From the NCBI GenBank assembly GCA_976551045.1, contig CDPCPM010000010.1, positions 23,932,001 through 23,996,000 on the forward strand: DNA of 64,000 nt, written 5' to 3'. The notes below the pieces were generated by a model, which was not told the origin of the DNA, searched no databases, and worked only from the letters and a program-made list of their open reading frames with translations. The position numbers and the translations under genes were made by a program. Of the stretch, positions 3,318 to 52,620 are shown piece after piece. The number at the start of each line of letters is the position of its first letter. The first letter of the stretch is position 1. The stretch comes from Glaucostegus cemiculus. Its lineage: Eukaryota.

Positions 3318-3515
3318 GAAAAAATTCTGCAAAGACTCAGCAGCTTGGACAGCACTTGCGGTGGGAGAAACTTTACTTTTCAGGTAAATGACCTTTCATC
3401 AGAACTGATTAAGGATCTTCAACCTGAAACATTAGCTCTGTTTCTCTTTTCACAAATGCTGCCTGACCAACATTTTATTTTCAGATTTCCAGCAGCCACA
3501 GGTATTTTTGTTTGA
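3318..3515. repeat. Fold-back Penelope-pLTR-derived repeat with two opposed hammerhead-like cores
   Basis: The minus strand has CTGATGAAAGGTCATTTACCTGAAA. The plus strand has CTGATTAAGGATCTTCAACCTGAAACATT, followed by tgctgcctgacc...tcagatttccagca. Confidence 0.7.
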
Positions 3516-3754
3516 TTTTCAATAGTGGTAAGAATGTCTTTAGGAAATACGATTAAATGTTTCTAGTCGTTCTTCAGTGAAACTAAATGAGTGCAGCATT
3601 AAGAAATGAATACATTGCACTACCAGTGACTGATACACGAGCACCCATTTAGCTGTAGTCACCAAAGGGTAGTTTCTAGCCCACAGAACTTATGGATTCA
3701 GCAAGGCAGTCGATAAAACTTGACCAATTTCCACTTCCTAGAAAAATGGCTCAC

Positions 3755-3887
3755 CTCCTTTTCCTTCTCTTTCAGATCTGTCTCAGTTTCTTTAACTCTC
3801 ATGACAAACATTTGCCTCATTTCCTCCTCTTTTTTCTGCAGTTCACTCATAAATTCATTCCTCTTGGCTTCATAGGTTTCCTGCAGG
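3755..3887 (-). CDS. SEPTIN8: Septin-8 exon 8 (133 nt; coiled coil)
   Basis: ttctgtgtttag| acceptor and GAG|GTGAGC donor; encodes [44 protein letters not shown]. Confidence 0.96.
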
Positions 3888-5289
3888 CTAAACACAGAAC
3901 AAGGTATTTCAAATTATTGATCAACAGCTAAATCAGTCTTCAGCAAATCGTATAGATCAGTTAAAAATACACTTAATTGAGAACCAGTTTAATTGTGGCA
4001 GATGCATAGTTAAGCTGTCTTTATTTTATCCCATCAGCTCATCTCAGCTTCAAAGACCACTATTCAACAACTAACGTAACCATTTCTATTCATCATGTTA
4101 TCCGTTTGTGTGACGTGCATGAAATAAATTTTCAATTTTTATTGTATTCCCAAGACCTCCAGCCAAAGTAAATTTGTGCAGAATGGAAAACATTTTTTCC
4201 ATGCTTGGGCTAAATTTGAAATCTGACCCCACAAGAGAAATGACCACAGGTTATGCTATTCACAACTTAGTTTTCAAATCATCAAGCCATGATCAAGTTT
4301 CTAGACACCACCTTCTCAATATATTAGAAATTAAACAGTGATAAAAGAATAAGGCAATATCCCAGCCTTGTTCAATCTGAAAAGCCATGCACAATTAAGC
4401 ACATACTTAGACAAAGAAATTTCTAAGATTTTCCAGCACCAACAAATTTTCAAATTTCCATAAACTTGCAACATTAAAATCCAGGTAACATTAGCTTTGT
4501 CTACCTTCCCAGCTGTCCACTAAACAATAGGTTTGAAGATTGGCTGCTAAGTTACTTCTACACCTTTACTAGCATAGTTACTGAAAAGTGTACAAGGCAT
4601 CCTGAGGAACTACCTTGTATTTCTACAGGGAAACAACCTGTACCCCTCAAGCAGAATGGCCAAGATTGTCCACATATTATGTCCACAAATGTATCTACAT
4701 CACATCTCAGCACTAGTAGGTAGTAAAATCAATATGAACGCTACTACCCCTCAGCCCAAGTTGACAGTCAAAAAGATGATAATGAAATCCATCAAAGCCT
4801 GTAAATTTCATATTGGAAATGATTATCTTCACAAATTCCAAAGCTTAGCCCACAGTGTTCAATATTCACATTTATATTTGTCTGGACTTAGTATCTCCAA
4901 TCCTTATGCAAAATGCTTCACAACTCTAGTTTATTAAATCGTTGAGCCTGGTCTTACCACAGTGAAGTATCAGGGGATGTGTTGGGGCTGCTGCAATAAC
5001 TGGAATTCACCAAAGAACTGAAATCTATGAGAACAATCATGCCAGGTGATTAAAATAAAAGAATCTGACTAGGTTTCCAAATCTGAATAGGTGCAATACC
5101 TTTGTCTTGCTAAATAAAAAGGAAATTCTGTTCAGATGTGCAGGAAACTAAGTAAACACAACTTCAAGGATCACTAACCACAGCCATTTGAAGATTGAAT
5201 TCTTCCAGTAAGTTGTACCTAGATTTAGATCTGAGCAGTTTCTTTGTACATTTAAAACCCCTTGCTAGTTTTGCCTTCAGATTTAAAAA

Positions 5290-5500
5290 AAAGAAGAGTT
5301 TGGGAAAGCACAAATACGTTAATAGCAAACTGTGTTTTACCATTTTGATAGTCTTTTTTGATGGAGTTGATGAGGGTAGTGCAGTCAGTGTAGTGTACAT
5401 GAGCTTCTAGAATACATTTTGATAAAATACTGCATAAGAGGGTTATCAGCAAAGTTAAAGCACATGGAATAAAAAGGGACATTGAGAATAGACTTGGACT
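5290..5500 (+). mobile_element. Short CR1 RT fragment
   Basis: FFDGVDEGSAVSVVYMSF...KVKAHGIK resembles the CR1 RT segment VDEGxAVDVVYMDF. Confidence 0.65.
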
Positions 5501-5504
5501 ATCT

Positions 5505-6818
5505 CTTGCACCTTTCTCTCCTCCTTCAATCTTTCCATCTCCATCTCAGGAGACTCCTTATCCACCAACATCTTCTACAAACCCACTGACCCCCCACAGC
5601 TACCTCGATTACAGCTCCTCCCAACCTGTCTCTTGCAAGAACTCTATCCCTTTTTCTCAATTTTTCAGCCTCATCTGCTCCCATGATGAGGCTTTTTACT
5701 CCAGGACATCCGAGGTGTGCAACTTCTTTACCAACAGTGGCTTCCCCCCTACCGTGGTCAACAGAGTTAGCACCTGCCTCTCTGCCATTGCCTGCACATC
5801 TGCTCTCACCCCTACCCCTCCCAGATCCAACATGGACAGGGTCCCACTTGTCCTCACATTTCATCCTACCAGCCTACGTATCCAACACATCATTCTCTGC
5901 CATCTCCAATGGGACCCCACCACCAAGCACATCATCTCCTCCCCACCCCTTTCTGCCTTTAGCAGGGACTGCTCTCTCCACAACTCCCTAGTTCACTCCT
6001 CCCTCCCTACCCATCCTGCTCCCACCCAGGGGACTTTCCACTGCCCCCGCCATAGGTGCCGCACCTGCCCCAACACCACCTCCATCCAGGGACCCAAACA
6101 GTCCTTTCAGGTGAGACAGATTCACCTGCACCTCCCTTAATATCGTCTACTGCATTCGGTGCTCCAAGTGTGGCCTCCTCTACATTGGCAAGACCAAATA
6201 CAGACTAGGCGACTGTTTCACAGAACACCTGTGCTCCGTCCGTAACTGCGATCTGCATCTCACTTCAACTCCCTCTCCATCACAGATATGTCAGTCCTTT
6301 GCCGCCTCCACTACCAGGAGAAGTCCAAGTGCAAACTGGAGGAACAGCACCTCATTTTCTGTCTTGGAACCTTGCAGCTTAATGCCATTAATACTGAATT
6401 CTCCCACTTTAAGTAATCCCCACATCACCACCCCCACAAAATGCCCCTTCTTTACTTCACTTACTGAGTTTCTCTTTCTTTTTTCTACCCTTTTCTCCTC
6501 CTTACCTTTGACCATTCCCCCAGTGGATCTGCTCTCCCCTCCTCCCCCACACCTGCCTATCACTATCTCTTACCTGTATCTACTTATCACAACCTTGTGC
6601 CCACCTGCCTCCTCTCTTTTGTCCACCTATCACTGATCTGCTTTTCTCTCCTTTCTATTGGGCTTCCCCTTTTCCTATCTTTAGTCCTGAAGAAGGGTCC
6701 TGACCCGAAACATTGACCGCCTGCTTTTCTCCCCAGATGTTGCCTGGCCTGCTGAGTTCCTCCAGCATCACCATATTTTTCATCTAGATTCCAGCATCTG
6801 CTGTCCTTTATTTCTCCT
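5505..6818 (+). mobile_element. Penelope-like element, 3' portion (RT C-terminus, GIY-YIG endonuclease, pLTR)
   Basis: TNIFYKPTD.HSYLDY and RVPLVLTFHP, then NIVYCIRCSKCGLLYIGKT..RLGDCFTEH and EEQHLIFCLGTLQ...N.EF (GIY-YIG). Stop at 6414-6416, followed by a pyrimidine-rich UTR and a hammerhead motif. Frameshifted. Confidence 0.9.
6683..6718 (+). ncRNA. Minimal hammerhead-ribozyme motif in the Penelope pLTR (likely decayed)
   Basis: gtc-CTGAAGA-a-gggtc-ct-gaccc-GAAAC-att-gac: conserved core, stem II and a short stem I. The expected ACGT palindrome reads ACAT. Confidence 0.65.
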
Positions 6819-7066
6819 GTAATCCACTCAAATTCAAGAAATGAAAATCAACTGCAGCATATATTTAAAAGTCATCAAGGCATCATCAAGGACTCTACAT
6901 TTGTTCAAATCTCCTGTTTATTCAGCATGGGATAGGTTACTTTTTGCACTTATGAAGAGTTTCTGCTGACCTCCAGTCCTGTTCAATAAATATATAACTT
7001 TCACCATACAGAATTAAATTTATGATTTTATAATTTTTCTTCAAATATTGAAGGAGATTTTCTGAC

Positions 7067-9069: not shown

Positions 9070-9245
9070 AAATATTCTTTTGTTCTCTCTAACCTTCCCC
9101 TTCTATGCAACTTAAAATATGCTGATTTTTTAAATATATTTTGTCTGGATCTGATGAAAGGTCATCAACTTAAAACATTAGCTGTTTCTCCTCCCATAGA
9201 TGCTGCCTGGTACACTGAGCATTTCCAATTCTCTGTCTTCATTCT
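9070..9245 (+). repeat. Penelope-pLTR-derived repeat with decayed hammerhead core
   Basis: ctgatgaaaggtcatcaacttaaaacattagctg...agatgctgcctggtacactgagcatttcc. Confidence 0.65.
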
Positions 9246-9479
9246 GCTCGATCTTCCTGCAAACATGATCAAGACAGAAAACAATGCAGCCTCAGACCAA
9301 GCCCTCATTGCATCTACAGCAAAGTAATGCGGGAACATTAAATATAGACCAAGGAATAAATACAAATGACCTCCTTCAAAAGTATGGCTAAAGTAAAAGG
9401 GAAGGAGAGTGCAGGAGAGGTTACTGAAATCTCCAGAATAAATAATAAGATAAAGTTTAGAAAGGGATAAGAATTTAAC

Positions 9480-12400
9480 CTCTTGCAATATGGAGACAAA
9501 TTTGAGAAGGATGGTGAATACAGGACTGGGGTGTTATATCTGAATGCACACAGTATAAGAAATAAGGTAGATGAGCTTAGCGCACAGTTAGAAATTGGCA
9601 GGTACAACATTGTGGGCATCACAGAGTCGTGGTTGAAAGAAGATCACAGCTGGGAGCTAAACATCCAAGGATACATATCCTATCGAAATGGCAGGCAGGT
9701 GCGCAGAGGGGGTGGGGTGGCTCTGTTGGGAAAAAATGAAATCAAATCCTTAGCAAGAAGTGACATGGGATCAGAAGATGTAGAATCCATGTGGGTAGAG
9801 TTAAGAAACTGCAGGGGTAAAAAAAACTCTGATGGGAGTTAAATACAGGCCTCCAAATAGTAGCCAGTATGTGGGGTACAAATTACAACAGGAGATAGAA
9901 AAGGCATGTAAAAAGGGCAATGTTACAGTGGTCATGGAGGATTTCAATATGCAGGGAGATTGGGAAAAATCAGGTTGGTAATGGATTCCGAGAGGGAATT
10001 TGTAGAGTGCCCACAAGATGGTTTTTTTTTAGAGCAGCTTGTGGTCGATCCCACTAGGGAAAAAACAATTCTGGATTTGGTATTGTGCAATGAACCAGAT
10101 TTGATTAAGGAGCTTAAGATAAAGGAACCCTTAGGAGGCAGTGATCATAATATAATAGAATTCACCCTGCAGTTTGAGAGGGAAAAGCTAAAATCAGATC
10201 TCAAGATAAGGGAGCAGAAGTAGGCCATTCAGCCCTTCGAGTCTGCTCCATGAGAAGGAGAGAAAAGATAACATATCTATCCCCAATTTCCAGCCTTATC
10301 CCCATATCCCTTGATACGTTGATTAATTAGGTACCTATCCAACTCCCCTTTAAATGCCCCCACTGACTGAGCCTCCACAGCTGTATGTGGCAGAGAATTC
10401 CACAATCAGTATTACAGTTGAGTAAAGGTAACTAGGTAACTACAGAGGCAGGAGAGAGGAGCTGGCCAAATCTGACCCCAGCAAGTGGAGCAGCAATGGC
10501 AGGAGTTTCTGGAAATGATTTGGAAGATGCAGAATCAGTTCATTCCAAAGCAGCAGCATTCTAAGAAGGGAGGTTGAGGCAACCATGGCTGACAAGGGAA
10601 GTCAAAGACAGCATAAAAGCAAAAGGAGGGCATACAATATTGCAAAAATTAGTGGTGAGCTAGAGGATTGAGAAGCTTTTAAAAGCCCACAGAAGGCAAC
10701 TAAAATAGCAACAAGATGAAATATGATGGTAAGCAAGCCAATAATATAAAAGAGGATGCCAAAAGTTTTTTGTTAGATATATAAAGAATGAAAGAGAGGC
10801 AAGAGTGGATATCAGACTGCTGGAAAATGACACTGGAGAGATAGTAATGGGGAACAAAGAAATGACGGATGAACTGAATAAGAATTTTGCATCAGTCTTC
10901 ACTGTGGAAGACACCAGCAACATGCCAGAAATTCAAGAGAGTCAGGTGACAGAAGTGAGTGCAGTCACTATTACTAAGGAGAAGGTGCTTGGGAAGCTGA
11001 AAGGTCTGAAGGTAGATAAGTCACCTGGACCGGATGGACTACACCCCAGGGTTCTGAAAGAGGTAGCTGAAGAGATTGCAGAGGCATCAGTAGTGATCTT
11101 TCAAGAATCACTAGATTCGGGAATGGTTCTAGAGGACTGGACAAAAAAAAAATCACAAAACATCACTCCACTCTTTAAGAAGAGGGAGGGAGGCAAAAGA
11201 CAGGAAATTATAGGCCAGTGAGCCTGACTTCAGTGGTTGGCAAGATGTTAGGAATCCATTATTAAGGATGAGGTTTGGGAGTATTTGGAAGCACATGATA
11301 CATTTGGCCAAAGTCAGCATGGTTTTTTTAAGGGGAGATCTTGCTTGACAGATCTGTTGAAATTCTTTGAGGAAATAACAAGGCAGGATAGAGAGAGTCA
11401 GTGGATGTTGTTTACTTGAATTTTCAGAAGGCCTTTGACAAGGTGCCGCACAAGAGACTGCTAAACAAGATAGGAGTGCATGGTATTACGGGAAAGGTAC
11501 CAGCACAGATAGAAGATTGGCTGACTGACAGAAGGCAAAGAATGCAATAAAGGGGGCCTTTTCTGGTTGGCTGTCGGTGACTACTAGTGTCCCACAGGGG
11601 TTGATGTTGGGTCTGCTACTTTTCACATTATATGTCAATGATCTGGATGACAGCATTAATGGCTTTGTGGCCAAGTTTGCAGATGATACAAAGGTAAGTG
11701 GAGGTGTAGGTAGTGTTGAGGAAGCAAGGAATCTGCAGAAGGACTTGGACAGGTTGGGAGAATGGGCAAAAGGAGTGGCAGATGGAATACAGCGTGGGGA
11801 AGTGTATGGTCATGCACTTTGGTAGATGGAATAATGGGAAGCATATTCAAAAATCAGAGGTGTAAAGGGACTTGGGAGTCCTTGTACAGGATTTCCTAAA
11901 GGTTAACTTGCAGGTTGAATCGTGAGTAAGGAAATGCAATGTTAGCATTCATTTCAAGAGGACTAGAATATAAAAGCAAGGATTATAATACTGAGCAGTT
12001 TTGGGCCCCATATCTAAGGAAGGAGGTGCTGGCATTGGAGCGGGTCCAACGGAGGTTTACAAGAATGATCCCAGGAATGAAAGGGTTAATGAATGCGGAG
12101 CATTTGATGGCTTTGGGCCTATACTCACTGGAGTTTAGAAGGATGAGGGGGGATCTCATTGAAACCTACAGAATATATTGCAAAGCCTCAACAGACTGGA
12201 TGTTTCCAGTAGTGGGAGAGTCTTGGATGAGAGGGCACAGCCTCAGAATGGAAGGAAGTCCCTTTAGAACAGGGATGAGGAGGAATTTCTTTAGCTTGAG
12301 GGTGGTGAATCTGTGGAATTCATTGCCACAGACACTGTGGAGGTCAAGTCATTGGATATATTTAAAGTGGAGGTTGATAGATTCTTGATTAGTAAGGGCA

Positions 12401-12530
12401 TCAAAGGTTACAGGGAGAAGACAGGAGAATGGGGTTGAGAGGGAAAAATAAATCAGCCATGATCAAGTGGCAGAGCAGACTCAATGGGCCGACTGGCCTA
12501 ATTCTGCTCCTATGTCTTATGGTCTCTTGG
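9480..12530 (+). mobile_element. CR1 LINE ORF2 (APE endonuclease and RT), decayed, with 3' tail
   Basis: LYLNAHSIRNKVDEL..IVGITESWL, LGGSDHN, KSPGPDGLHPRVLKE, VPQGLMLG..KFADDTK and RRNFFSLRVVNLWNSLP; multiple frameshifts. Confidence 0.95.
10201..10404 (-). mobile_element. Short CR1-type 3' end inserted antisense inside the 9480-12530 CR1
   Basis: Reverse complement of a CR1 3' UTR (tgtggaattctctgccac...ctcgaagggctgaatggcctacttctgctcc). The host ORF2 resumes at atcagtattacag. Confidence 0.75.
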
Positions 12531-12744
12531 AAATTAAGCATTTTCCTTCCAATATTGTGGCTCAGAATCACAATCAGGTTTATTATCACCGACTTATATG
12601 TTGTGAAATTTGGGTTTTTTGCGGCAGCAGTTCAGTGTAAAGGCATGACGTTCTCACTTTTTCCAAGATTAACCACAAAAAGAAAATGCCAGGAAAATTT
12701 TATAACTGATTTCTTCTGAGCTCCAAATACCAACTTGACGTAAT

Positions 12745-12910
12745 AAACTAAAAATGCTTACGACACTCAGCAGGTCTAGCAGGCTTCTGCAGAAAGAGAA
12801 ATAAGGAAACAACATTAATTCTATTTCTCTTTCCAGAGATGCTGACTGACCTACTAAGTACTTCCACCATTTTCCATTTTTAATTTCAGATTTCCAGCAT
12901 CTGCAGTTCA
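12745..12910. repeat. Fold-back pLTR-derived repeat, hammerhead core deleted
   Basis: actcagcaggtctagcaggcttctg is inverted relative to cagagatgctgactgacctactaagt...tcagatttccagcatctgcag. Confidence 0.65.
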
Positions 12911-14315
12911 GTTTGATGCTACCAGAGTCAGGGGTATTTTAGAGCACTCAATATTTATCGCCACCATTACTTTAAGAGAATGTTGTTCCCATCACCTGAA
13001 ATCAAAGTGTAAGCTCACAGCTTGACACCATGACATGTCTGCTGCATTAGGCTACCACCTCCCCTCCAAAAAAGGATTTTTTTTAAGCAACATATTATTG
13101 GCCAAAAAAAAAACACACAAAAGTCCTAGTAGGTTTATAATTGTTTTGTTCTCCAATTCTCTGACTCACACATACAGGTCCCAAACATCTCAGAAAATTG
13201 CGACCATTGGTTAAAATAAAACCGCAAATTTACTTGCAAAGCATATTGCCGAGATGGTAAAAGAATTGACATCACCAGAAGTACCACTAGTTTGGTTTTC
13301 CCCAGATAGGAAAAGGAGGAAGCTAAATGATGACTTTGACATAAGGGTCATAACTTAAACTGAAATGGCTCCAAGTGCATTTTGGAATCTCCATCACTGT
13401 GAACACCACCAAAACCTGGGCAAAACTCAGATCTACAAAATCACAAATAATAACAATTGGAATTTATCCATGAACAGCATATTGATGTCACATTGACTTG
13501 GTAAAATACCTCAGTCTCCTCCAAAGCAAAACTCACAATCTGAGTCAAACAGATATGAATTCATAATCTTAAATAATAAAAATGGAATTGCGAAATGAAC
13601 ATAGAAATGTCTTACAGGATGAAGACAAGTACAACTCAGGTGGAAAGGGAAAGTCTGGATCTGTTTCACCAGTTTGCTGTACAAATTTTGACAAATATCA
13701 TTAATACAAAATCTATATGTGCTGCCACTGTCTAATCTTAGTTTCACAGGAATTGAGAGATTATTCCCTGTAATGTGATTAGAATGAGGGTGGGGGGTGG
13801 CAGGGTGTGAAGAGCAATAAATGAGAAACACAGCACTAGCCTGCAATATCACCAGTACTGGTGACGAAGTGTCAACGATGCGGAAGGGGGGTGTGACTTA
13901 CTATAATGGGGGTCATGAGTGGATGCACAAAATAAGCAATAAACAACATGATAATACAGACATACTGCACATTACCCTGTCAGTTGGATCTGGGCGAAAC
14001 TGCTAACTACCCACAAAACCTTATAAAAGTTTCCATCACAAATACAATCTGTAAACTATTTAAAGAAAACTACACATTGAAGATTTCACATCATACAACA
14101 TGATAACAAGAACCCTTTAGCCAAGGAAAAACTGATCTTTGGTACAATACTTTAAAAACAGAAAATCCCAGAAATACTCAGAAATACCCATGGAATAAGC
14201 ATTCTGGACAAATAAGCTTTCATTACAATTTGAGGTTAACTCTGTTTCTCTCTCTATAGGTACTTTATTCTCATTTTTCTTGCATTTGCAGTGTTTTGCA
14301 TTAGATTGCTGGTAC

Positions 14316-14806: not shown

Positions 14807-15058
14807 TTTAAATTTAAATTTAATTTACAACGTGGTAACAGGCCCTTTCGGCCCTCCGAGTCCACGCCGCCCATTTTTAACCCCCAAATTAGCCTACCGG
14901 TATGTCTTTTAGAATGTCGGAGGAAACCGGAGCACCCGGAGGAAACCCACGCAGACACGGGAGAACGTACAAACTCCTTACAGACAGCGACGGGAATCGA
15001 ACCCCGATTGCTGGCGCTGTAACAGCGTCGCGCTAACCGCTACGCTATCGTGCCGCCC
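14807..15058 (-). mobile_element. V-SINE (HE1-like), full length, CR1-type tail
   Basis: tRNA-derived head with A box TAGCGTAGCGG and B box GGTTCGATTCC, V-domain GGAGTTTGTACGTTCTCCCGTGTCTGCGTGGGTTTCCTCCGGGTGCTCCGGTTTCCTCC, and tail gggccgaaagggcctgttaccacgttgtaaa(TTTAAA)n. Confidence 0.92.
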
Positions 15059-20155: not shown

Positions 20156-20373
20156 TTTAAATTTAAATTTATTTACAACGTGGTAACGGGCCCTTTCAGC
20201 CCAACGAGTCCGTGCCACCCATTTTAAACCCCCAAATTAACCTACCCGTACGTCTTTTAGAATGTGGGAGGAAACCAGAGCACCCGGAGGAAACCCACGC
20301 AGACACGGGAGAACGTACAAACTCCTTACAGACAGCGACAGGAATCGAACCCTGATCGCTGGCGCTGTAACAG
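20156..20373 (-). mobile_element. V-SINE, same subfamily as the 14807 copy, 5'-truncated
   Basis: V-domain, B box and tail nearly identical to the 14807 copy. Confidence 0.9.
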
Positions 20374-21269
20374 CTTGGGATTTTGTTTCTAGTCCCTTTG
20401 ACAAATATCTGGAAGCTAGCTAATTTTATAATTATTGAAAGCAGCAAAATTGCTCAAGTTAAGCCTGTAGAGTTGAGCTGATGGGCTTTGCAGAGTCTGC
20501 AATATCATTGAAAAAAGTGATGTGCGTCTAAGGATCGATTTTTGATAATGATAGTCATTATGTTATTTGTTTGTAATTCTGCAAATGAATTGTACAGAAT
20601 TGATCTAGTTAATGTAAAGTAAATTGATTCTTTAGTTTGTAGTATGCATCTCAGTCTGATGAGTATATAGCAGAAAACCGAAAAATTATTTATGAACCAA
20701 AATACAAACAAGGGTCTGCGTTTGACTAGCTAGTCGTCAAGTCAGGTTACACTTGTTAACATTAGAGAGTTAAGTCACTTACAGAAATAGTTCAATCTAC
20801 TTCTCTAAATTATTCATTTATGCCCAAATGACCACCTGCTTGGTGAAAAACTGGTCACTAAAAGTGTTCAGCCTTAGATAAGGTGGCACATGTAGGCTCT
20901 GGTACCTGCAGCACAAGAATCAATTCACACTGTGTGGAGAGAGATGGTAGTAAAAGGGAAATGGCCAGGTATGAACTTAAAAGTGGCTAGAATTAAGGCA
21001 AAAAATTAGGAGACTGATATCTGAACAGTGGGACTACTAAATGATATAAAATATTTTTGAAGACTACAACAGTGATGTTCTTCCCAATCCAGTAGGTATC
21101 ATTGGCAAGCTAACCATATTCAAAACTGAATGTTGTTTTTCTTAGCATAGAAACAGCAGTTTTAATGGTGCATTGTGTACAATTTAAACAATGGTTATTT
21201 CAAGCCTAGTGACTAAAACATCACAAAAGCTTCCCTTACATAGCCTGGTACAACAGAACACAATAAATG

Positions 21270-21390
21270 AAAAGCAATGTCCTGCAGATGTTGGAAATCT
21301 GAAATAAAAACAAAAAATGCTGGAAAATAGCATCAGTGCAGAGAGAAACACAGTTAATGCTTCAGTTCAATGACCTCTCTTCAGAACAAG
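21270..21390 (-). repeat. Penelope-pLTR-derived repeat
   Basis: The minus strand reads ctgaagagaggtcattgaactgaagcattaactg...tcagatttccaacatctgcag. Confidence 0.6.
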
Positions 21391-21779
21391 GAAAAAAGTT
21401 AGAAAATCAAATATGAAAATAAAAGGGATGTCTGTGACAGGACATTGAATGTTATAAATTTTAAGAGAGCCGGGAAGCCTTGTTAATCAACTGAAATTGT
21501 AGAGGAGAAGTAGATGAATGAGGACAAAGGAGAGAAAAAGAAAACAGAAACAAAACTATGGTGGAATTTTAGTTTATACAACAGAGCATTTGCAAGAAAT
21601 TTTAAATAAATGAGGATGGTGGCTAGTTCTGACACAAAAGTAAAGGGTTGGTTATCTGAAGTTGTTGAATTCAACGTTCATTCCCAAGGCCTATATCATG
21701 TCTGGTCACCAGATATGTTACATCTCAGGGTTACACTGAGTTTCACTGGAAGACTGTGAGAGGTTAAAGAGCAAAAATA

Positions 21780-22470
21780 TTCAAATACTCTGGTTCCACT
21801 ACCTATTACGGAAGAGTTCTAAAGACCCTCAGACAAAATATTGAGCCTCATCTGTCCTTAATGAGCAGCCACTTATTGTTAAGTCAATGATCCCTAGCTC
21901 TAGATTCTCTCACAAGAGGAAACATCCTCTCCACAGTCTCCTGATCATGACCCCCTCAGGATCCTGAATGTTTCAATTAAGTCCCCTCTCACTCATCGAA
22001 ACTCCAACCAACACAAGCCTAACTTGTACAAAATTTCCTCACAACACAAGCTGCTTACTAATGTCATAAATTCTCTAAACACATTAAAATCCTTCCTTAA
22101 ATAAAGGAGGCCAATACTGTATAGAGTTCTCCAGATGTGGTCTCATTTGCACTTTATATAGTTGAAGTGTAACCTCACTACTTTTGTATTCAATTCCCCT
22201 TCAAAATGCAATAACATTCTTTTGGCTTTCCTAGTTACTTGCTATACCTGTGTACCAGCCTTTTGTAAATCATGTACTGGGACACTCAGTGTTCTCTCAA
22301 CAGTTAGATGAAAAGCTTTTTTCATTTTCCTGCCAAAATGGATAATTTCACATTTTTCTACTCCATACATCATTGTCAGATTTTTGCCCACTCACTTCAA
22401 TTATCTATATCCCACTGTGACCTCCTTGTGTCCTCTTCAAAACTTGTCTTCTTACCCATCTCTCTCATTC
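21780..22470 (-). mobile_element. Old CR1 3' fragment
   Basis: Reverse complement of CR1 C-terminal motifs (ctggagaactctatacagtattggcctcc, gagtgagaggggacttaattgaaaca); heavily diverged. Confidence 0.6.
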
Positions 22471-22474
22471 TTCA

Positions 22475-23400
22475 TTGAAAATACCGGCAGATGACACTAA
22501 GGTTGGTGGTGTTGTGGATAGTGTAGAAGGTTGCTGTAGGTTACAAAAGGACATTGACAGAATGCAGAGCTGGGCTGAGAAGTGGCAGATGGAGTTCAAC
22601 CTGGAAAAGTGTGAAATGATATACCTTGAAAGATTGAATTTGAAGGCAGATTACAAGGTTAATGGCAGGACTCTTTGCAGTGTGGAGGAAGAGAGGGATC
22701 TTGGGGTCCACATCCATAGATCCCTCAAGGCTGCCGCGCAGATCAATAGGGTTGTTAAGGAGGTGTATGGTGTGTTGGCCTTCATTAGTTGAGATATTGA
22801 GTTCAAGTGCTGCCAGGTATTGTTGCAGCTCTACAAAACTCTGGTTAGACCACACTTGGAATATTGTGTTCGGTTCTGGTCGCCTCATTATAAGGATGTG
22901 GAAATTTTAGACAAGGTTCAGAGGAGATTTACCAGGATGCTGCATGGAATGGAGAGCATGTCTTATGAGGATAGGTTGAGTGAGCTAGGGCTTTTCTCTT
23001 TGAAGCAAAGGAGGATGAGAGGTGACTTGATAGAGGTGTACAAGATGATAAGATGCATAGATCGAGTGGACAGTCAGAGACATTTTCTCCCCCAAGAGTG
23101 AAAATGGCTAACATGAAGGGGCTTAATTTTAAGGTGATTTGAGGAAGGGATAAGGGAGATGTCATAGGCAAGTTTTGTTTTTAAACACAGAGAGTGGTGG
23201 GTGTGTGGAATGCACTGCCGACACAGTATATGGAGGCAGATACATTAGGGACATTTAAGAGACTCTTAGACAGCCACATGAATGATAGAAAAATGGAGAG
23301 CTATGTGGGAGGAAAGGGACAGATAGATCTTAGAGCAGGATAAAATGTTAGCACAACATTGTGGGCTGAAGGGCCTGTACTGTGCTGTAATGTTCTATGA
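22475..23400 (+). mobile_element. CR1 LINE 3' part
   Basis: ADDTKVGGVVDS...WAEKWQMEFN and LYKTLVRPHLEYCVRFWSPHY; tail gggctgaagggcctgtactgtgctgtaatgttctatg. Confidence 0.92.
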
Positions 23401-24450: not shown

Positions 24451-25825
24451 CCTTCACTTTTTCAAGAAGCCATGGCTAAGAGAGGGATAGGCCAGAGCTG
24501 GGGCGAAAACGAGAGAGAGAGGTTGGAGGTCAGTATAATCTCTTGCAAGTTTCCCAAGACAATTCTCCAGCATAATGCAGGGGATCTCACAAAGTCTAGG
24601 CTTCACTGCTGGACTCCTTGGGGTTCGAGATTTGACATTCTATAACAGCTGCTGGCCAAAAAGGGGTGCAAGCTGCACAACATGTACTCAAACGTAACCA
24701 AATATACTCAATGAACACTACACCCACACCCAAAAACCTGCTTTTGTAATTATTCAACATTGCGAGCACAGATCAAAGGACTGTCGAAAGCAGAAGATGG
24801 GATTTTTATTATGAGGAAATATAAAAATAATAGCAGACTAATGTTTTGTCAGTAACTTGTCCTTAAATCATTCTGAAATATCATTTGAAATGGTTTTCTT
24901 CCTGAACAAAATCTCCATTCTTTTAAATTCTTTAACCAAGGATGTCTTCATTTGGAGTTTTAATCAAAATGTCTGTTTATTTTGCCTGAAACAGAGCTTA
25001 ATTTTATCTGCAATAGCCCCAAGGAAATACTGCTTTACAAAAAAAATACAAATTTCTAACCACAAGGTCCAAAGGACTGTGTACAGACAGCATTACATCA
25101 GTCTTCAAATGAGCACTAGCTTCAGTCTGAACCAAGGCTCAGCTGAGAAAAATGGCGTCTACATACAATTCCTTCCCCAATTTGCAAATTCCTCTCCCAG
25201 TCACCCATCATCCGAACTTGAAAATATAATTACTAAGCTTTCATCACTGACAGGTCAAAATATTGGAGTGTGGAATTGTAACAGTTCAACAAGCTTTCAA
25301 TTTCAAGAATAAAGAAAAACAATACTAAAGCCTTCATTCATAGAACTTTTGTTTAAACAGTAAGATTTGTCTTTTGGGCCATCTAGTTTTTCGTGAAAAC
25401 TTTTCATTCAAAAACAGTGGTTATTATTCAGCATTTGGTTTACAAAACATACTTTATGCACCATAATTTAATTCAACATGGCACATATAAAAGTAACTAG
25501 TCTGTTAGCCCTTGTAGAGCTACCAAAGAATGAATACAAGACAGTGACTCTCCCAGAATGATTCTGTTGTTTTAAAAAAACCATTGCATCACCATCAGAC
25601 CACAAGTCTGCCCATGTGTCAAATCCTGTTTCAGTTTCCTCCAGATGAGTTCAATTGACCAAACTGGCAGCGGTTTAGCTTTATTCAAGCCACTTAATGA
25701 CTTTTAACTTATCCTAACAACTTACACACAATTGTTTGATGCCTGAACCCTGAAGATAAAGTTCTTACTGCTTATACCGCCATTTTAGAGGTGCACAACC
25801 ACTTTATGATTGTGTTATCAAAATG

Positions 25826-26085
25826 GAGACACAAAAGTGTGCAGATGCTAGAATCTGGAGCAACACACAAGATGCTAGAAGAACTCAGCTGGTCAGGAAG
25901 CATCTATGGAGGGAAATGGACCATCAACATTTCAGGACTGTTTTTTTCCCCCCTGGGATAGAGGTGGGATCTGGAAGCAGTAGCCCACTCCAGATGCTGG
26001 GTCCCAACCTGAACCATTGACTATCCATTTCCCTCCATAGATGCTGCCTTACCTGCTGAGTCCTCCAGCATTTGGTGTGTTGCTT
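25826..26085. repeat. Fold-back pLTR-derived palindrome
   Basis: gcaacacacaagatgctagaagaactcagctggtcaggaagcatctatggagggaaatgga is the inverted partner of tccatttccctccatagatgctgccttacctgctgagtcctccagcatttggtgtgttgc. Confidence 0.8.
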
Positions 26086-26719
26086 ATGATTTTGTTAGCA
26101 AGATTTACTACTGTATGCATGTATACTCACCTGAAGGCCACAGTTACTTTCCATCACCTTTTTTTAAAACTGATCATCAGAATGCATGCTATCAAAAGAA
26201 CTTCTGCTTCAAGGCTTCCTCTGACCTGAAGATGCCTCATTTAGGATATAGCATACTGTCCTTTTGGGTCTTAACCAGGGGCATATCAACAGACTGCATT
26301 TTACTTCAACAGTAAATTACTTGCAAGCATAAACATCAAAAAAAAGAACTCTGGCTCATTAGTGTGAAAGAAATTGTGCATTCTGATTGATCTCTTAATT
26401 GCCCATGATTTATTACCCCTTCCTGGTCTTCTCTTTACTTCAAGACTGCTTAGGCTTTTTGCTCTTCTCAATCCATGTTCAAAAATGTCTTTAACAGCCA
26501 AGATACTTCACTGCACTCTGTACACAATTCATTGGAACCTGAGAACCGGAGGTCCAAACTTGCATGCATTGAAAACTTCACTGACATTTATTATTACGCA
26601 CTTGTCTTGCATATCCACTGACTACCAATAATTAATATCACCTTGTCAAAGGTTTGAGGGTTAAACAAAAAATCATATAACCAATGTGCTGCCTATGTAT
26701 ATGGCACTTCTAATTGGTA

Positions 26720-32600: not shown

Positions 32601-33192
32601 AGTATGGGAGTTGGGACATTATGTTGTAGTTGTATATGTTGTTGGTGAGGCTGCACTTGGAGTACTGTGTATAGTTTTGGTCACCTTGTTATAGGAAAGA
32701 CATGGTTAGAGTGCAGAGTGCAGAAAAGATTTACAAGGATATTGCCAGGACTAGAAGGCCTGAGTTATGCAGAGAGGTTGGCCAGGCTAGGCCTTTATTC
32801 CTAAGAATGTAGGAGAAGGAGGGGTGAACTAATAGAAATGTTTAAAAATTATGAGAGGCATAGATAAGGTGGACGGTAACAGTCTTTTCCCCAGGGTAGG
32901 AGAGTCCAAAACTAGAGGGCATTGATTTAGGGTGAGAGGGGAAAGATTTAAAAAGGGATTTGAGGGGGAACTTTTGCCACACCGAGGGTGATTAGTATAT
33001 GGAATGAGCTGCCAGACGAAGTGGTTGAGGCAGGTATAATAGTATCATTTACAAAGCATGTGGATAGGTACATGTAGGGCTTAGAGGGATATGGGCTGTA
33101 CACAGGATATTGGGACTAGATGGGTGGGCACCATGGTCAGCATGGATTCATTGGGCTGAAGGATCTGTATCCATGCTGTGTTGCTCTATGAC
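29655..33192 (+). mobile_element. CR1 LINE with ORF1 SGNH-esterase domain and full ORF2, decayed
   Basis: ORF1 has AIVIEDSIVR, CLPGARVKDV, HVGTN and FLDHWDLF...DKLHF. ORF2 has CIYFNARGL, VLVGDFN, GSSDH and SGVPQGLVLGPLLF. The CR1 tail ends ctgtgttgctctatgact. Confidence 0.92.
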
Positions 33193-34139: not shown

Positions 34140-34860
34140 CTAAGGAAATAGATGCACTGGAGGTAATCCAAAAAGATCCACCAGGCTTGTTCCTGGGATG
34201 AGAGGATTTTCCTATCAAGAGAGACCAAACAGGTTGGGTCTATATTCGATGGAGTTCAGAAAAATGAGGGATGATCCTATTGAAGTATACAAGATACTGA
34301 CGGGACAGATACACGGTAGCATAGTGGTTAGCATAATGCTTTACAGTGCCAGCGACCCAGGTCCAACTCCGGCCACTGTCTGCAAGGAGTTTGTACGTTC
34401 TCCCCGTGTCTGCGTGGGTTTCTTCGGGGTGCTCTGGTTTCCTCCCACATTCCAAAAGACGTACAGGTTAGGAAGTTGTGGGCATGCTACATTGGTGCCG
34501 GAAACATGTCAACACTTGTGAGCTGCCCCCCAAATCACTACGCAAAAAGATGCATTTCACTGTGTGTTTTGATGTACATGTGACTAATAAAGAAATCTTA
34601 TCTTACAGGATAGTGGTTGAGATGTTTTCACTAGTAGCAGAGTCTTGAATGAGGAAAAATAGTGACATGATAAATGGTTAGTCCATTAAAAACTGAGGTG
34701 CATAGAGATTTCTTCCACTACAGGGTAGTTGAGGCTGGATCATTAGAACTATTTAAAGTGGAGGTTGATAAATTTTTGAAAGATCAGGGAATTGAGGGCT
34801 ATGGGGATCTAGCAGCAGGCTTGAGAGGTCAGGTGGTCAACTCCTGCTCTTATTTTCTGG
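34140..34860 (+). mobile_element. Old CR1 3' fragment hosting a V-SINE
   Basis: MRGFSYQERPNRLGLYSMEFRKMRDDPIEVYKIL; continues after 34605. Confidence 0.75.
34310..34604 (+). mobile_element. V-SINE, second subfamily (Rex1-like tail)
   Basis: tRNA head and V-domain, then tail gcatttcactgtgtgttttgatgtacatgtgactaataaag(ATCTT)n. Confidence 0.88.
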
Positions 34861-43880: not shown

Positions 43881-44288
43881 TTATCACACTCTCTTCACAC
43901 TCTTGCCATCTGGAAGAAGGCTCCAGTGCATCCGGGCAAGGACAACTAGACTGTACAATAGCTTCTTCCCACAAGCTATTAGAACTGTGAACTCCCTCAT
44001 CCCTCCAACACTAAAGGATGCTCGGAAGGGTCTTCAACTTAAAAGGTTGCTTCTGTTTCTCTTCACACAGATTCAGTCTGACCTGCTGAGAATTCCTAGC
44101 ATCTTCTGCTTTTGTTTGATTACCAGCATTCTGTTGATCTCCTGGGGTTTGCGTTATGGCAATTTGAACACCTTGTTTCAAAACAAAAGACGCTTTGTAA
44201 TGCAATGCCCAATGTGTGCTGATTGAATAAGTAAATTTGCATGTTACTACACGAGTCTCTGGGATTTTTTTTTTAACAGGTACTTGTA

Positions 44289-44862
44289 GAATCAGAATCA
44301 GTTTTATTGTCACAACCATATACGTACATAGTATGCATAGGAGCGAGATACCGTCCTCCTCAGGTGCTCGTCCCATAAAAATAACATAACAACCAACAGA
44401 GACACACATACACACTTGGCAGAATACACAGTACAAAACATTACACATTAGAAGCTATGGAGGTTAAAATTAAATTATTACGCAGATTAAATTAAAAATG
44501 GCCGGTAAATAAATAAATAGTTATTAAAGTGAATGGGCTGGAGTCGGGCATTTAAAGTGCTGGTGCATTTCTGTGCACCTAGCATCTCTTAGTGTTAACA
44601 AAGGAAGATGGAGGGATGAGAGAGTTTGCAGTTCTGATGGCTTGCGGAAAGAAGCTATTGTTCAGCCTGGTCGTTCTTGCCCTGATACATTTAAGCCTCC
44701 TCCCTGATGGCAAAATTGTGAAGAGGTGGTGGGAGGGGTGAGAAGGGTCGGCCATTATGCTTTTGGTCTTCCTCACACAACGGTCTTTGTATATGTCTGT
44801 GAGGGATGGAAGCGAGACACCTATGATCCACTCCGCAGCCCTAACTATCTTCTGTAGGCCAA
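44289..44862 (-). mobile_element. Rex1 LINE 3' end with complete 3' UTR
   Basis: LQKIVRAAEWIIGVSLPSL...DPSHPSHHLFTILPSGRRL..RARTTRLNNSFFPQAIR and tail gtgacaataaaactgattctgattct. A short plus-strand copy of the same family lies at about 43885-44010. Confidence 0.88.
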
Positions 44863-46000: not shown

Positions 46001-48029
46001 GGGGGTTCTCCAGGAACATACAAAGTCCACCACATATAGATCAAGGTCCTATATGAAGTGGTGAGAGTTGTACAACCCAGGTTTGGCTATTAACTTATTA
46101 CTGTTATGTAACACCAAATAAAGGCTCAGTCAAGCAACATTTTCTGTGGGTCAGCTAATTTGTTGAAACTGATTTTACATTTTAGTAATGCTACAAATTT
46201 CATGCCTTAATGTATGTGCAAGTGGCTGAGAGTAATGGAGAAGGATGGGGAGGAATACAGTGTAGTGACAGAGGAAAGAGAACACAAGATATAAGAACAC
46301 TTATTAAAAAGTAATCTGAGTACAGTGAATGGCTCAACATTTTTGGTGCGTTGGTATATTTTCCTGGCCTAATTCTGTGCAGTGGACAGATTTCAGGTGC
46401 ATGCAAAATTACGGACTAAACTGTAGCACCATAGATATGACATGCCAAAATATTAAAGAGACCTCTGATATTTCCTGTTTATTTGTTCTTCCTTCCCTGT
46501 CCCTTTATCTAACCTCATGCATCCCTTCTTTTGGTTCTTATGAAAGTTAACTTTCCATATCATCGATCTTCTGTCTCTTTCTCCACAAGCACTATCCGAC
46601 CTGCCTAGAATTTTCAGCATTATTAATTTTTTGAGATTGAGCAGTGCATTTTGTTTTGGCTTTAGGGTTGTATCCCACTCCCATTTTTAGCTGCATGTTC
46701 TGCATCTTTGAATGAATTTATTTGTGCAAAATCAATTATTCATAAGGTTTTGCATTGCTGCTGTGTAAGAGTGGCAATTTTGAGCCAGTGATTCTTTGTT
46801 TATTCCAGCCTTCCTTTCTTTCCTGAATACTGGACTTGTATTTGCTACCTTTCAATCTGTGGGAACCATTCTAAAAATCAAAAGATTTTTAGTGGATACA
46901 TTGATTGTCATCTTCCATGTCCACAACCCTAGAATGTAGCTTAAATGGCAGAATAATTTCAGATAGGCATTTCTTGGAAATATTTTTTTAAATCATGCTG
47001 GGGAAAAACAGTAACACATTTATTTCACTCAATGGGAAATTCTCCTTTCAGAAGCACAAGAAATGCTTTCCCATTAAACAGCCTCCATTTTGAGGACACT
47101 AGCAGATCAGTGGTTTGGAGTGAATCGTCTGTAGTGTAGATTTTAAATACTTGCTGGTTCTACAGCCTTTCCTGCATACTCAATTCTTACTGAGAAAATT
47201 AACCACAAATAAACCTGATAAAGCCAAAGAAACTGATGTTATAATCCTTTACCGGTAGTTTCAAAAGTTGCACGACAACCCACCAGCCATGTTAGATCAC
47301 ACACGAGATAAATCTCACTTTGATCATTGGAGCATTTTTTTAAAATTTGCCACTCTTCATGGTTAAACGCATCAAAGGCCATGATAAGGGTCTACTGAAC
47401 CAAGTTAGAGAAGTTGTACTTCACAGAAGCAAGAGAAAATACACCAAACAGATCTTAAAATAAATCTTTAACAAATTCAATGCTCCATTATTGTGTCACG
47501 ATAGGAGACATTAACACATAGGGGTTAAAACTAAATTCTATTGTTTGAATTTCAAGAAGCTGGCAGCAAATGCCAAGGGAACTTGATTAATTGGTAATGT
47601 GCGGATTGGTACTGTCAGACTGGAACATCTGCCACTGACAGATTAGAAACCATAGGAGTTCTGAGAAAACTCAAGTCAAATCTAGCATGGGTTTTGTTAA
47701 CCATGTTATTTATAGCACTCATAACATTACATGAAATATTATAGTGAGACAGTCAATACACAAGCTATTGGAGTCTAAACTTTTATACATTTAATGATTA
47801 CTTCCCAATAATTACAATGGGTATCATCACACAATACCAGACCAGCACTTCACTGCAGAAATGGTCACCATCAGTCCCCATCTGCCAAATCATCATGGCT
47901 AATTGATCATTACACCTTATTAAAAATAAATGTCAAAGTACACTATAATCACTTGAGGCAGATTACTCTTTTAATTATTTCCAGGAACCATTCTACAATC
48001 ACTCTGTTCCTTTGTTTTGGCAATAACCT

Positions 48030-48590: not shown

Positions 48591-48631
48591 TGAGAATGAG
48601 GAAACAAGGCGAACCATGTAAATGATGCAAC

Positions 48632-48768
48632 TTGAGAAACAAAGGACTGCAGATGCTGGAATCTAGATGAAAGACACTATGATGGCGAAGGAACTCAGCA
48701 GACCAGGTACACCAATGGAAAAAGAGTAGGCGGTCAACGTTTCGGGTCAGGACCCTTCTTCGGGACGG
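48632..48768 (-). repeat. Solo Penelope pLTR copy with hammerhead motif, same subfamily as the 6683 copy
   Basis: The minus strand reads gtc-CCGAAGA-a-gggtcctgaccc-GAAAC-GTT-gaccgcc...ctgctgagttcc...catctagattccagcatctgc, nearly matching 6683-6815. Confidence 0.8.
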
Positions 48769-48859
48769 TAAAGGACTGATAGCGAAGTGCATAGTTCTGG
48801 GTGAGGATGAAGTTAAAAAGGAAAAAAAAGACTTGTTCTTACGCACCTCTCTTAGAACA

Positions 48860-49100: not shown

Positions 49101-51254
49101 AGACATCCATAATAGATACAAGTAAAGAATCTTTCTCAAAGGATACATTAACTTGGGTCAAGTTGTCTCATCTACAATTATATTGTGAAAGTACAATGAA
49201 TACTGCTATTAAAAGTATACATTTTAGATTTTAAAGGAAGAATTTTAAAGTTAATTTTAATTGGTTATTTTTTTTAATAAATCCTCGATTTGGTATCATT
49301 CCCTGCTAGATGCAAGAGATAGATGCATGCTAAATTCATAGGAAGAAACAATTTAAATAGGCTCAGGAGCCATTGGATCCTGGAAACCACACAAACAGCT
49401 GGTGATGGAGACTTCCCAGCCCGTTGTGTGGTTTTCCAGAATCTAACAACTCTCAGCCATCTGAAGTTACAGCCCCCAATGTTTTTTATGAAGCATTTCC
49501 AGGATTTACAAAGATTCTCACCAGCAGTGAAAAGAAGTAAGAACTGCTTTACTCGGTGGTCTTTATGCTAATATAATCTGTATGTATATATTTTTCTTCA
49601 AAATTAAGAATGAATGTGGTACTCCACAAATTTTCCTCCCCCGATACAGTGCTGGAAGAAAGCATATACTGTTTTGTGGTATCCTACATACAAACATTGC
49701 TACCAAATTGGTGCAATAATCTTACTAGTCTATGGAAATAACAATAATTTGTCCATAACAAATGCCAATTGTGATATGGGCATAGTACAAACTGTGATGC
49801 AAAGGATATTAAGCAATTTCATTCTTAACAAAGTATGGATTTGACTATGTTGATATTTTTTTAATGACAAAATCACTCTGACTTATGCACCTATAATGTG
49901 TTATGGCATTTTTTGTTTCACACACTAATGCGACTGTCAATATTGCTAATGCACAGCATATCATTGTGGTAATCATAATCATTAAATGCTACTATCTAGA
50001 ATTCACAAGGAAAATGGAGGTAAAACTAGTTGTAATTAAAACTTTTACAGCACTTAAGTAAGAAAGGGTTGCTATCTGGAATGATTCATAAATTATAGGG
50101 CAATTCCACACTTCACACTCAAGAGAAAAGCCCCTTGAATAAAGATCACAAGCAAATGGATTAAAAAAGAACAAGACACACAAATAGCAGAGGCATCTGC
50201 AAAACATAATTCCCACCAATTGTCAAAACAAGAATCTATTAATGGCTTTTTACAGCAAGAGGCCATCTTCACAGCAGAGACTTTCATCCTCTCAGACCAA
50301 GCTTGATGTGACGCCAGACACCACAGGAAAAAAGGTCCGCATTCCAAAATATTTTACGTAAATCCTAACTGTTGACTGTTAAAGGGATTCAGAAATGTTT
50401 CCTTGTATTTTTTTTCATGCCAATTATTTATTGTGGGGTATTTTTACCACTAGAGCACAAAACATAATAAAGTAAAATCTTTGCTAATGTGAGTAAATTG
50501 GAAGATGTTGCAAAACATTTCTGCAAGACACTGGACTTGAATCCAGCAGGGTTCTACCACTGTGACAAGGCCAGAGTTCTGGGGCAAAATTTAGTTTTTT
50601 GTCAGTATCATATTGCGCTCTATTTTAAAACATCAAAAACATGCTTTAGTTGCATCTCTTTTAACCCCTCTGCCCCCAAAGCAGAATATTGTGCGTTTCA
50701 AGTAGTTTTACTTGGTAATTGGTGCCCATAAGCTTATAAATGTTTGAAGGAACAAATCAGTCTTCAGTCTTTATTCCATATCATTTAACCTGTTATCACC
50801 CTACTTGAAAAAGAAAAGAATTCCTGGAGTATGGTTCCACTGAACGACCTCTCCATTCCCTTCCACTTTCACAACCAATCTTTACGAATAGACCTCAACA
50901 CAAAAGCTGAAAGGCTAGTCATCGTGGTCAAACATAATTTTCCTCATCTAATGTGCATGAGTGGCCGAAGTCCCCAAACAGGGAACAGAAGTGATCAATC
51001 CTTCATGGATATAGAAACTGAGGTCAAATGTCTGTAACCTTGCTCCAGTGAAATGTGTTTGGATGGGAATAAAACACTGAATCTTCCCATTCTCCCTAGA
51101 TCTGAGCTAAGAAAAAATGGGTAAATGCACTACAAGGAAGTTGTTCTAGCAAATACGTCCGCTTTTAGACAAAATCTTAATAAGAAGGTGCTATTTCCTT
51201 TCCCTCATGATGGGCTGTGCAAGGGAGTACTGGGGATGCAAAAATTTCCATGAC

Positions 51255-51510
51255 ACTTGGCTAAAGAAGAGCAAGAGAGTATCCCAAGTGCCTAGACCAG
51301 CAATTTACTTCAGTAACATTGAATTAAGTATTTTGTAATTATTACATTGCTATTTGGGTGAAACTTGCTGTGCACACCAAGTCCACTCTATTCTCAACAC
51401 TTGAAAAGTAACAACTTTTCAAAAGCATTTCATTGGCTTAAAATATTTTGGGAAGCCTGAAAAAGGGATACAACAAAAAAAAATTAAATATAATGCTTGC
51501 CTTACTTTTT
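51255..51510 (+). mobile_element. Deu-domain SINE remnant with L2-like tail
   Basis: gaagagcaagagagtatccc...attacattgctatttgggtgaaacttgctgtgcac...caaaagcatttcattggc...tttggga. Confidence 0.55.
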
Positions 51511-52367
51511 TTTTTCTTTCCCTACATTTCAGTATAACTGAAGTGCAGGAAGAGAAAATTTTTTTAAATGCTGATCAAAGTATTTGAAAGCCTTAATGAA
51601 AAGTTTGCCCAAATTGCTTTCATCAATCTACTTTGAAACATCATTCAGACACTCTAATGTTTCTTAGCTTTTCAATGAAAAGAAGTTCTTTTTAACACTT
51701 TTGTCCCTCCATTCTTTTTCTGCATTGTGCTTGATCTACAATACTAAACCTATCCAATGGCTAAAATATCCAGTAATGAATCCTCAAGTCTACAACAGTT
51801 TACTTACAAGCCAACATAATATCCCAGTATACAATTCATTCCCAGGTATGTAATATTCTAAATACAACTTATATGCTGCTGAAATTGTACTTCACTATTT
51901 TTAAGTTCAAGACAGTCTTCTTCAGACAATCTCATGCCTCAAGGCACAAAAGTGCCCAGTAATTTGAGTTACAACCACTCTTCCATTGCTGGGAATCACA
52001 AAATACAGGAACAGCTTGTACTTGTATGCCATTTTTTAACTTAATAAAATGTCTGAGAATGCTTCACAAGGCACAATTTGCCAAAAATCCAAAGCCAAAA
52101 CAAGAGTCAGATAGCTTGATTACCAGTGTAGGATTATCCTGAAGGAGAGAGATGGAAAAGTTTAGGGAGGAAAAGTTGGAAAGAATCAGTTGAATGACAT
52201 GGCTGCAAGTGGAACAGGTGGTTAGATTTGGGAAAGTCATAGAAATGCAGTTTTCTGGGGAGGAGAGCGATGAAATGGAAGAAACTGCAGAACTTGGCTA
52301 GAGTAAAAACATCCAGAGAACTACAGAGAGAATTTAAAATTTAATGTGTAGAACAACTCAGCAAGAT

Positions 52368-52620
52368 TAAGACACAAGAGAGTCTGCAGATGCTGGAAAT
52401 CTGGAGCAACACAAAATGCTGGAGGAACTCAACAGGTCAGGCAGCATCTTTGGAGAGAAATGGACAGTCAGCATTTCACATCGAGCCCCTTCATCAGGAC
52501 TGGAGGTAGAAATGGGCAGTCCTGATGAAGGGTCTCGACCCGAAACCTTGACTGCCCATTTCCCTCCATAGATGCTGCCTGACCCTCTGAGTTGCTCCAA
52601 CATTTTGTGTGTTACTCCAG
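52368..52620. repeat. Fold-back pLTR palindrome with two opposed hammerhead motifs
   Basis: ctggagcaacacaaaatgctggaggaactcaacaggtcaggcagcatct pairs with agatgctgcctgaccctctgagttgctccaacattttgtgtgttactccag. Cores are at 52522-52546 (+) and about 52474-52497 (-). Confidence 0.85.

Follow-up and report, generated by a model that had tools for sequence, protein, structure and literature searches.

A Third of the Short Penelope-Like Hammerhead Repeats of Glaucostegus cemiculus Share a 5′ Start That Likely Marks Run-Off of the Reverse Transcriptase

Introduction

The 64,000-nt stretch of the Glaucostegus cemiculus genome analyzed here (contig CDPCPM010000010.1, positions 23,932,001 to 23,996,000 of the forward strand; hereafter, the window) carries a dispersed, non-coding repeat with the motif of a minimal hammerhead ribozyme, which is also found in the pseudo-long terminal repeats (pLTRs) of Penelope-like elements (PLEs). 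Do such repeats form a non-autonomous family of their own that is processed by its ribozyme and mobilized by Penelope, as the first-pass annotation of the window had proposed, or are they left behind by the PLEs themselves? We conclude that the short copies are very probably PLE by-products. A third of them share a start just before the ribozyme, which likely marks the transcription start of the element RNA, where the reverse transcriptase (RT) ran off its template (probability of about 0.6).

A Preferred 5′ Start of the Short Copies

The ends of the copies were counted in 159 arbitrary 10-kb stretches (1.59 Mb of the 2.85-Gb genome). For this, the profiles of three families (A, B, and C) were built from long copies fetched by search, and the hammerhead motif and stems were found in all three of them. 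The sample gave 334 hits, from which 27 were dropped for not reaching position +60, leaving 307 copies (145 of family B, 137 of C, and 25 of A) with a median length of 109 bp. Their density of 193 per Mb corresponds to ~550,000 copies genome-wide. Positions are counted from the C of CUGANGA, which is 0; stem I is formed by −5..−1 with +28..+32, and the predicted cut falls after +27. Two family B copies lying 1.6 kb apart (G000:C7:19366803 and 19368382) have the same ten upstream letters, which may reflect a local duplication or a larger tandem unit.

The 5′ ends of 100 of the 307 copies fall at −10..+1. Per base at risk this is 4.73% (100/176; 58/108, or 4.48%, in families A and B alone), a roughly tenfold spike, as the rates elsewhere are 0.38–0.48% (+22..+60), 0.79% (−30..−11), and 0.2–0.4% further upstream. 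Plain random 5′ truncation would give such a pile-up only as an artefact of aligning a low-complexity region; the upstream pLTR is indeed pyrimidine-rich and differs between sub-families, and the window copy at 9146 is probably under-called. When 40 real long copies were cut at random positions, either unchanged or with 7% mutation added, the ends fell in the −10..+1 interval in 0 of 176 and 1 of 188 cases, and the spike was not reproduced. Moreover, the flanks of the copies starting at this edge contain pyrimidines at the background level (0.48–0.53, versus 0.71–0.79 in long copies), and only 1 of 63 unpaired edge copies has a pyrimidine-rich flank. Random truncation is therefore rejected for families A and B, and as a general account it is highly improbable.

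The sequence around the start resembles a promoter. By comparison with the TATA and initiator consensus motifs, long copies have an initiator-like YCAGTY at the start. In families A and B, this is preceded by a TATA-like box ~31 nt before the A at −4; in C, by an AT-rich stretch. The dinucleotide AG at −4,−3 is present in 28 of 66 unpaired edge copies, 13 of which have the templated C at −5. Among the 15 others, 11 have a G in this place (p = 1e-4 against 0.25), such as the extra G left before the start by cap copying in other retroelements. Counting by hand in the first 100 rows from each of two pattern listings, with pair arms included, gave G in 24 of 47 rows without the C.

Several observations weigh against an RNA start at this site. 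A second, broader excess of 5′ ends at +2..+21 (72/248, 1.45% per base) needs resection or stalling. The start itself is spread rather than confined to one base, with the templated C at −5 as the commonest letter (the 13 of 28 copies above, and 45 of 74 family B rows in a hand tally), and stem I ends exactly at −5 as well. The G seen in pattern rows can derive from the partner arm of a pair. The site also coincides with a pyrimidine tract followed by CAG, which resembles a splice acceptor. In Drosophila virilis, Penelope has a TATA-less promoter, and its transcript starts further upstream, with 46 nt and a 75-nt intron intervening (PMC2377424); the end of this intron lies at helix I (PMC4209133). 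Three RNA-seq runs of a related species, searched at 80% and 88% likeness, contained no pile-up of starts or ends, which fragmented libraries could hardly show. Finally, for some old sub-types the upstream sequence is not covered by the family C profiles, and the copy at 9146 looks longer than called: judged by eye against another locus (L230), 60–100 upstream bases appear pLTR-like, and the copy may extend into them.

The main rival to run-off is a structural stop, in which RT stalls or the cDNA folds back once stem I is copied, so that the fixed end would mark no RNA end. The commonest start at −5 is just what it predicts, about 3 of 100 pattern rows, by eye, join the inverted arm via stem I, and self-priming at palindromes has been proposed (PMC3846280). 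However, ends are not enriched at the entry of RT into the hairpin (+24..+32, 0.38% per base), the junction phase of 25–29 that a fold-back would give was found in only 2 of 58 pairs, and the TATA-like box at −31 and the extra G are left unexplained. We regard a structural stop as unlikely.

Splicing would also produce a fixed start: the short copies would come from spliced RNA, and the letters upstream of the start would be the end of a first exon. The acceptor-like tract with CAG at −5..−3 is present in all three families, the D. virilis intron ends at the corresponding helix, and family B edge copies have G at −3 (76%) and A at −4 (62%), as exon ends do. Nevertheless, the upstream flanks match the pLTR or each other no better than controls, and we rejected a captured or element-derived first exon on this ground. 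In several copies, only 0–6 nt separate the target-site duplication from the start, too few for an exon, and many copies retain the CAG itself. A splice acceptor is thus an improbable source of the shared start.

3′ Ends and Head-to-Head Pairs

The 3′ ends of families A and B cluster at two sites, +90..+103 and +124..+137, which are ~35 nt apart; the clusters are less sharp in C. These sites match the two positions at which, according to PMC11167929, RT starts internally below the hammerhead and so makes the tail. The first-pass annotation had asked whether the solo copies share defined ends. They do so at the two 3′ sites and, for a third of them, at one 5′ site, while the remaining 5′ ends are spread. 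All three family profiles also contain, at ~+110 between the two 3′ end sites, a second pyrimidine tract followed by YAG, possibly a cryptic splice acceptor or a part of the RT start signal.

Head-to-head pairs include 110 of the 307 copies (55 pairs), and no tail-to-tail pair was found in the 1.59-Mb sample. The arms belong to the same family in 52 of the 55 pairs, and 47 pairs combine a long and a short arm (43–48 depending on the threshold; expected ~49%, p = 3e-8). With the three window pairs added, duplications of at least 10 nt flank 28 of 58 pairs; they also flank 13 of 69 solo edge copies (5% in the control for either). As one duplication is shared around both arms, a pair represents one insertion. 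The junction phases are spread from −38 to +111, so each pair arose independently and the pairs do not represent a fixed composite element. Junctions set by the hammerhead stems were rejected as the main route to the pairs, given the 2 of 58 at the predicted phase.

Attachment to Penelope-Like Elements

Long copies of families A, B, and C contain, a few hundred bases upstream of the hammerhead, the end of an open reading frame (ORF) of the same kind (tblastn). The type with stem II aggtc..acct is linked to an ORF in L230 (47% identity, E = 1e-11; 1 of 12 loci), and sub-type B3 in four loci (L107, L178, L185, and L192). Every type tested thus occurs joined to an RT/GIY-YIG frame, and the repeats are therefore the 3′ ends of PLEs rather than a separate family. 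This bears out the initial identification of the units as Penelope pLTR ends with minimal hammerheads, and it lends no support to the proposal of a non-autonomous ribozyme-processed family, as all types nest in ORF-bearing elements. The first-pass annotation had named random 5′ ends nested in the autonomous consensus as evidence against that proposal; the copies are nested, but their ends are not random.

At locus L130, a partial tandem creates direct pLTRs: 2631–3260 repeats 5692–6352 at 77%; a truncated copy ends in the tail, and a whole element adjoins it with its internal 5′ part. A full-length unit thus has the hammerhead module at both its head and its end. In the RNA reads of the related species, the internal 5′ region of this locus (L130:3632–3889) is strand-biased (e.g., 16 vs. 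90 in one run), which hints at sense transcription of whole elements there.

The Pfam matches, RVT_1 on L134 (E = 0.011) and GIY-YIG on the window frame (E = 0.032), both below the curated cut-offs, lie in the order expected of PLEs. A Cys-rich linker, seen by eye as CxxxxCxxC in the window frame and degenerate in L134, suggests that the elements, probably endonuclease-positive PLEs, belong to the Neptune clade as delimited in PMC8557442, which has a Zn-finger-like motif between RT and endonuclease. The element families are several and old, and their short copies decay neutrally, with a star-like ancestry.

The Short Copies as Candidate Retrozymes

An independent, retrozyme-like element, processed by its ribozyme and copied in trans by Penelope, would account for the defined ends on both sides of a third of the copies, for the presence of target-site duplications, and for the fact that only 26 of the 307 copies reach at least 300 nt upstream. 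The family is also present in the RNA of a related sample, and mobilization in trans via pLTRs is documented (PMC3846280). Yet 5′ ends in the cut region (+24..+32) were found at the background rate (9/261), and only 4 tandem neighbours within 60 nt occur among the copies of the sample, against the 55 head-to-head pairs. Catalytic cores are intact in only 20 of 171 copies, and the core, with identities of 0.93, 0.83, and 0.84 versus 0.95, 0.85, and 0.82 downstream, is no better conserved than its flank.

Short copies do not stand apart from long ones either. In B and C, the identity among short copies is not above that between short and long ones; in A, the two are equal. In a tree of randomly sampled copies only, the short copies did not cluster (p = 0.18 and 0.33), the 100-nt cores giving this test limited power. 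The clustering seen in a tree including fetched long copies (p < 0.005, B and C) was discarded, because the long rows had been chosen by similarity to one query. A B sub-cluster of 12–15 copies had no long member on the tree, which speaks against an origin as by-products; long members of that type were found later. In the RNA reads of the related species, both strands of the family are represented; sense reads are in excess across the upstream pLTR and internal 5′ region, and 75–92% of the reads run on into unlike flanks, as read-through would give. The notion of a separate ribozyme-driven family is thereby already largely refuted, and we consider it distinctly improbable.

Proposed Mechanism and Comparison with Known Systems

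Run-off at an RNA start would fit into the following scheme. The element RNA would be capped and would begin at the 5′ edge of the hammerhead, driven by the TATA/initiator promoter. RT, primed by the nicked target DNA, would start internally, ~100 or ~135 nt from the RNA 5′ end, as a full-length element made of a truncated and a whole copy, like that at L130, would have start sites near the RNA 5′ end as well. If primed on the leading module, RT would copy the hammerhead module only and fall off the capped end after 105–140 nt; if primed on the trailing 3′ pLTR, it would make the longer copies, which are truncated at random. The asymmetric pairs would result from RT being primed twice, once on each strand and once at each start site, with the arms joined at variable microhomologies. 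The short copies, having no upstream promoter, are predicted to be dead on arrival, and ribozyme cleavage would be unneeded to make them.

In retroviruses, internal priming near the RNA 5′ end followed by run-off yields minus-strand strong-stop DNA, a short cDNA of fixed length. Unlike it, the product proposed here would have nicked target DNA as its primer and would end up in the genome as a dead-end copy. We put it at slightly better than an even chance that the commonest PLE product is such a strong-stop-like cDNA, made on one or both nicked strands, with a start that coincides with stem I of the hammerhead.

The closest experimental counterpart is Poseidon_Ac of the green anole, whose RT starts at two sites below the hammerhead, thus giving the tail, with both strands cut and extended and with ribozyme cleavage unneeded for insertion; the accessible part of the paper describes no preferred 5′ end of genomic copies, which is seen here (PMC11167929). 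The endonuclease-positive PLEs of PMC8557442 and PMC3846280 have an RT followed by a C-terminal GIY-YIG, as ours probably do, and share with ours partial tandem pLTRs, heavy 5′ truncation, an inverted truncated neighbour, a 30–40-bp tail on one end only, and target-site duplications of ~9–18 nt; TATA and initiator-like motifs were noted in the pLTR of Adineta as well. They differ in that most insertions here measure 100–250 bp, in the ~550,000 copies, and in the third of 5′ ends at one start.

The same minimal hammerheads were reported in PLE pLTRs; most are single copies in the genome, explained there as truncated PLEs, and some are opposite-strand duals 100–700 bp apart, with weak cleavage, of dimers only (PMC4209133). 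What is added here, from sequence alone, is counts of how the solo copies end, pair, and decay. Non-LTR retrozymes likewise combine a type I hammerhead with non-coding, pLTR-related sequence (PMC7229834; bioRxiv 10.64898/2026.07.22.740005). They form tandem repeats with a hammerhead per unit and circular RNAs, whereas the copies here are solo or head-to-head, have mostly broken cores, and do not have the cut site as a boundary. Earlier papers thus already cover the element type, motif, tail, and inverted arm. A fixed 5′ start of PLE copies was not found in print, supplements aside; the genomic end maps of PMC11167929 and the bioRxiv supplement may bear on it.

The elements themselves are ordinary fossils, and their value lies in the record of PLE insertion. 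For the way in which PLEs, whose RT is the closest relative of that of telomerase, make their odd inverted and tailed insertions, the fixed start, the long and short arms, and the single duplication around both yield specific predictions, addressed to the existing in vitro system and to cap analysis of gene expression (CAGE). If run-off is true, the position of the transcription start, the two RT start sites, and the way in which a vertebrate PLE inserts on two strands can be read from hundreds of thousands of genomic copies. For annotation, a solo hammerhead hit in such a genome is in most cases a broken by-product and not a ribozyme gene or retrozyme.

The Repeat in the Window

The window was searched with the family profiles, and the hits were graded by E-value. 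The unit was present at all 11 sites listed at first pass, at 10 of them with E < 1e-5; the site at 14150 is weak. Five local shuffles of the window gave no E-value below 0.17, and a shuffled 990-kb sample gave 0 matches versus 208 in the real sequence, so that the repeat family is real. A scan of the window against Rfam left the motif unmatched and returned only two chance hits elsewhere.

The initial count of about ten single copies holds for the sites only: four of them (3307–3522, 12733–12920, 25824–26093, and 52368–52620) are head-to-head inverted pairs, and the one at 14150 may be a fifth, which makes ~15 arms with pairs counted as two. Both of the stem II types described at first, gggtc..gaccc and aggtc..acct, exist, although the window contains at least three families (A, B, and C) plus sub-types rather than two. 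The further claim that only the copy at 6683 is attached to an ORF was confirmed by tblastn, as this copy continues into the broken RT/GIY-YIG frame (5492–6413); one such site of 11 is typical because so few of the sample copies extend at least 300 nt upstream. Among 12 scored arms, 3 (3407−, 6683+, and 52517+) keep CUGANGA, GAAA, and UH, and none has the core together with the ACGU palindrome. The predicted folds contain the expected stem II, and that of 52517+ also stem I; the predicted dimers pair via stem II, not helix III.

Table 1. Copies of the repeat and the associated Penelope frame in the window.
Position	Strand	Feature	Evidence and details
3307..3407	−	Short arm of inverted pair, family C (aggtc..acct)	Profile; 5′ start ~−5, core intact
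3400..3522	+	Tailed arm of the 3307 pair, internal deletion	Profile; start ~−5; candidate target-site duplication around the pair (3307–3522): 11 nt, 1 mismatch
5492..6416	+	5′-truncated, broken Penelope ORF: RT end, linker, GIY-YIG	tblastn, 59–75% to the frame of a longer copy; Pfam GIY-YIG E = 0.032, below curated cut-off; CxxxxCxxC linker visible in translation
6417..6823	+	Family A pLTR with pyrimidine-rich stretch, TATA-like box (degenerate, near 6652), hammerhead, and tail	
6682..6719	+	Minimal type I hammerhead motif	Sequence, fold; predicted cut after 6714; stem I AGTC/GACC remnant, CUGAAGA, stem II GGGTC/GACCC, GAAA
9146..9244	+	Family C (aggtc) copy, short 3′ end	Profile
12733..12920		Inverted pair whose arms, a short minus and a tailed plus arm, lack the hammerhead core	Profile
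14153..14264		Highly decayed sequence, possibly an inverted pair	E = 0.51 and 0.018 only
21279..21393	−	Family C solo copy, tailed	Profile; start ~−9
25824..26093		Family B pair: tailed minus arm (25824–25936), ~48-nt spacer, short plus arm (25985–26093)	14-nt target-site duplication, 1 mismatch
44025..44125	+	Family C solo copy, core lost	Profile
46529..46634	+	Decayed copy	E = 8.9e-6
48626..48767	−	Family A solo copy, tailed; typical fixed-start unit	Profile; starts at −4
52368..52620		Family B pair: tailed minus arm (52368–52505), short plus arm with intact core (52517–52620)	Both arms start at −5 to −8; candidate 9-nt duplication, 1 mismatch

Other Repeats and Frames in the Window

Apart from the Penelope unit, the repeats of the window have the look of cartilaginous-fish repeats. 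Dispersed short repeats that are 80–96% alike lie at 14807–15026, 20156–20374, 27352–27494, 34322–34530, 53065–53125, and 62625–62831; we take them to resemble the vertebrate V-SINE. Broken copies of long interspersed nuclear elements (LINEs) with endonuclease and RT frames, presumably CR1-like from their appearance, are found at 476–1091, 9471–12416, 22421–22792, 32242–32952, and 56189–58362. Two inverted repeat pairs unrelated to Penelope, 600–800 nt apart and 81–85% complementary, lie at 43891–44007/44609–44725 and 36792–36876/37683–37767; the former involves LINE-like 3′ sequence and adjoins the copy at 44025. A 93-nt repeat beginning with AGAATC units is present at 44288–44380 and 60123–60215 (97% identity), and its second copy adjoins an RT frame (60245–60868) of a younger LINE family. 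The GC-richer stretch at 53700–54813, with an open frame of 191 codons (54238–54813), may be the 5′ region of a host gene.

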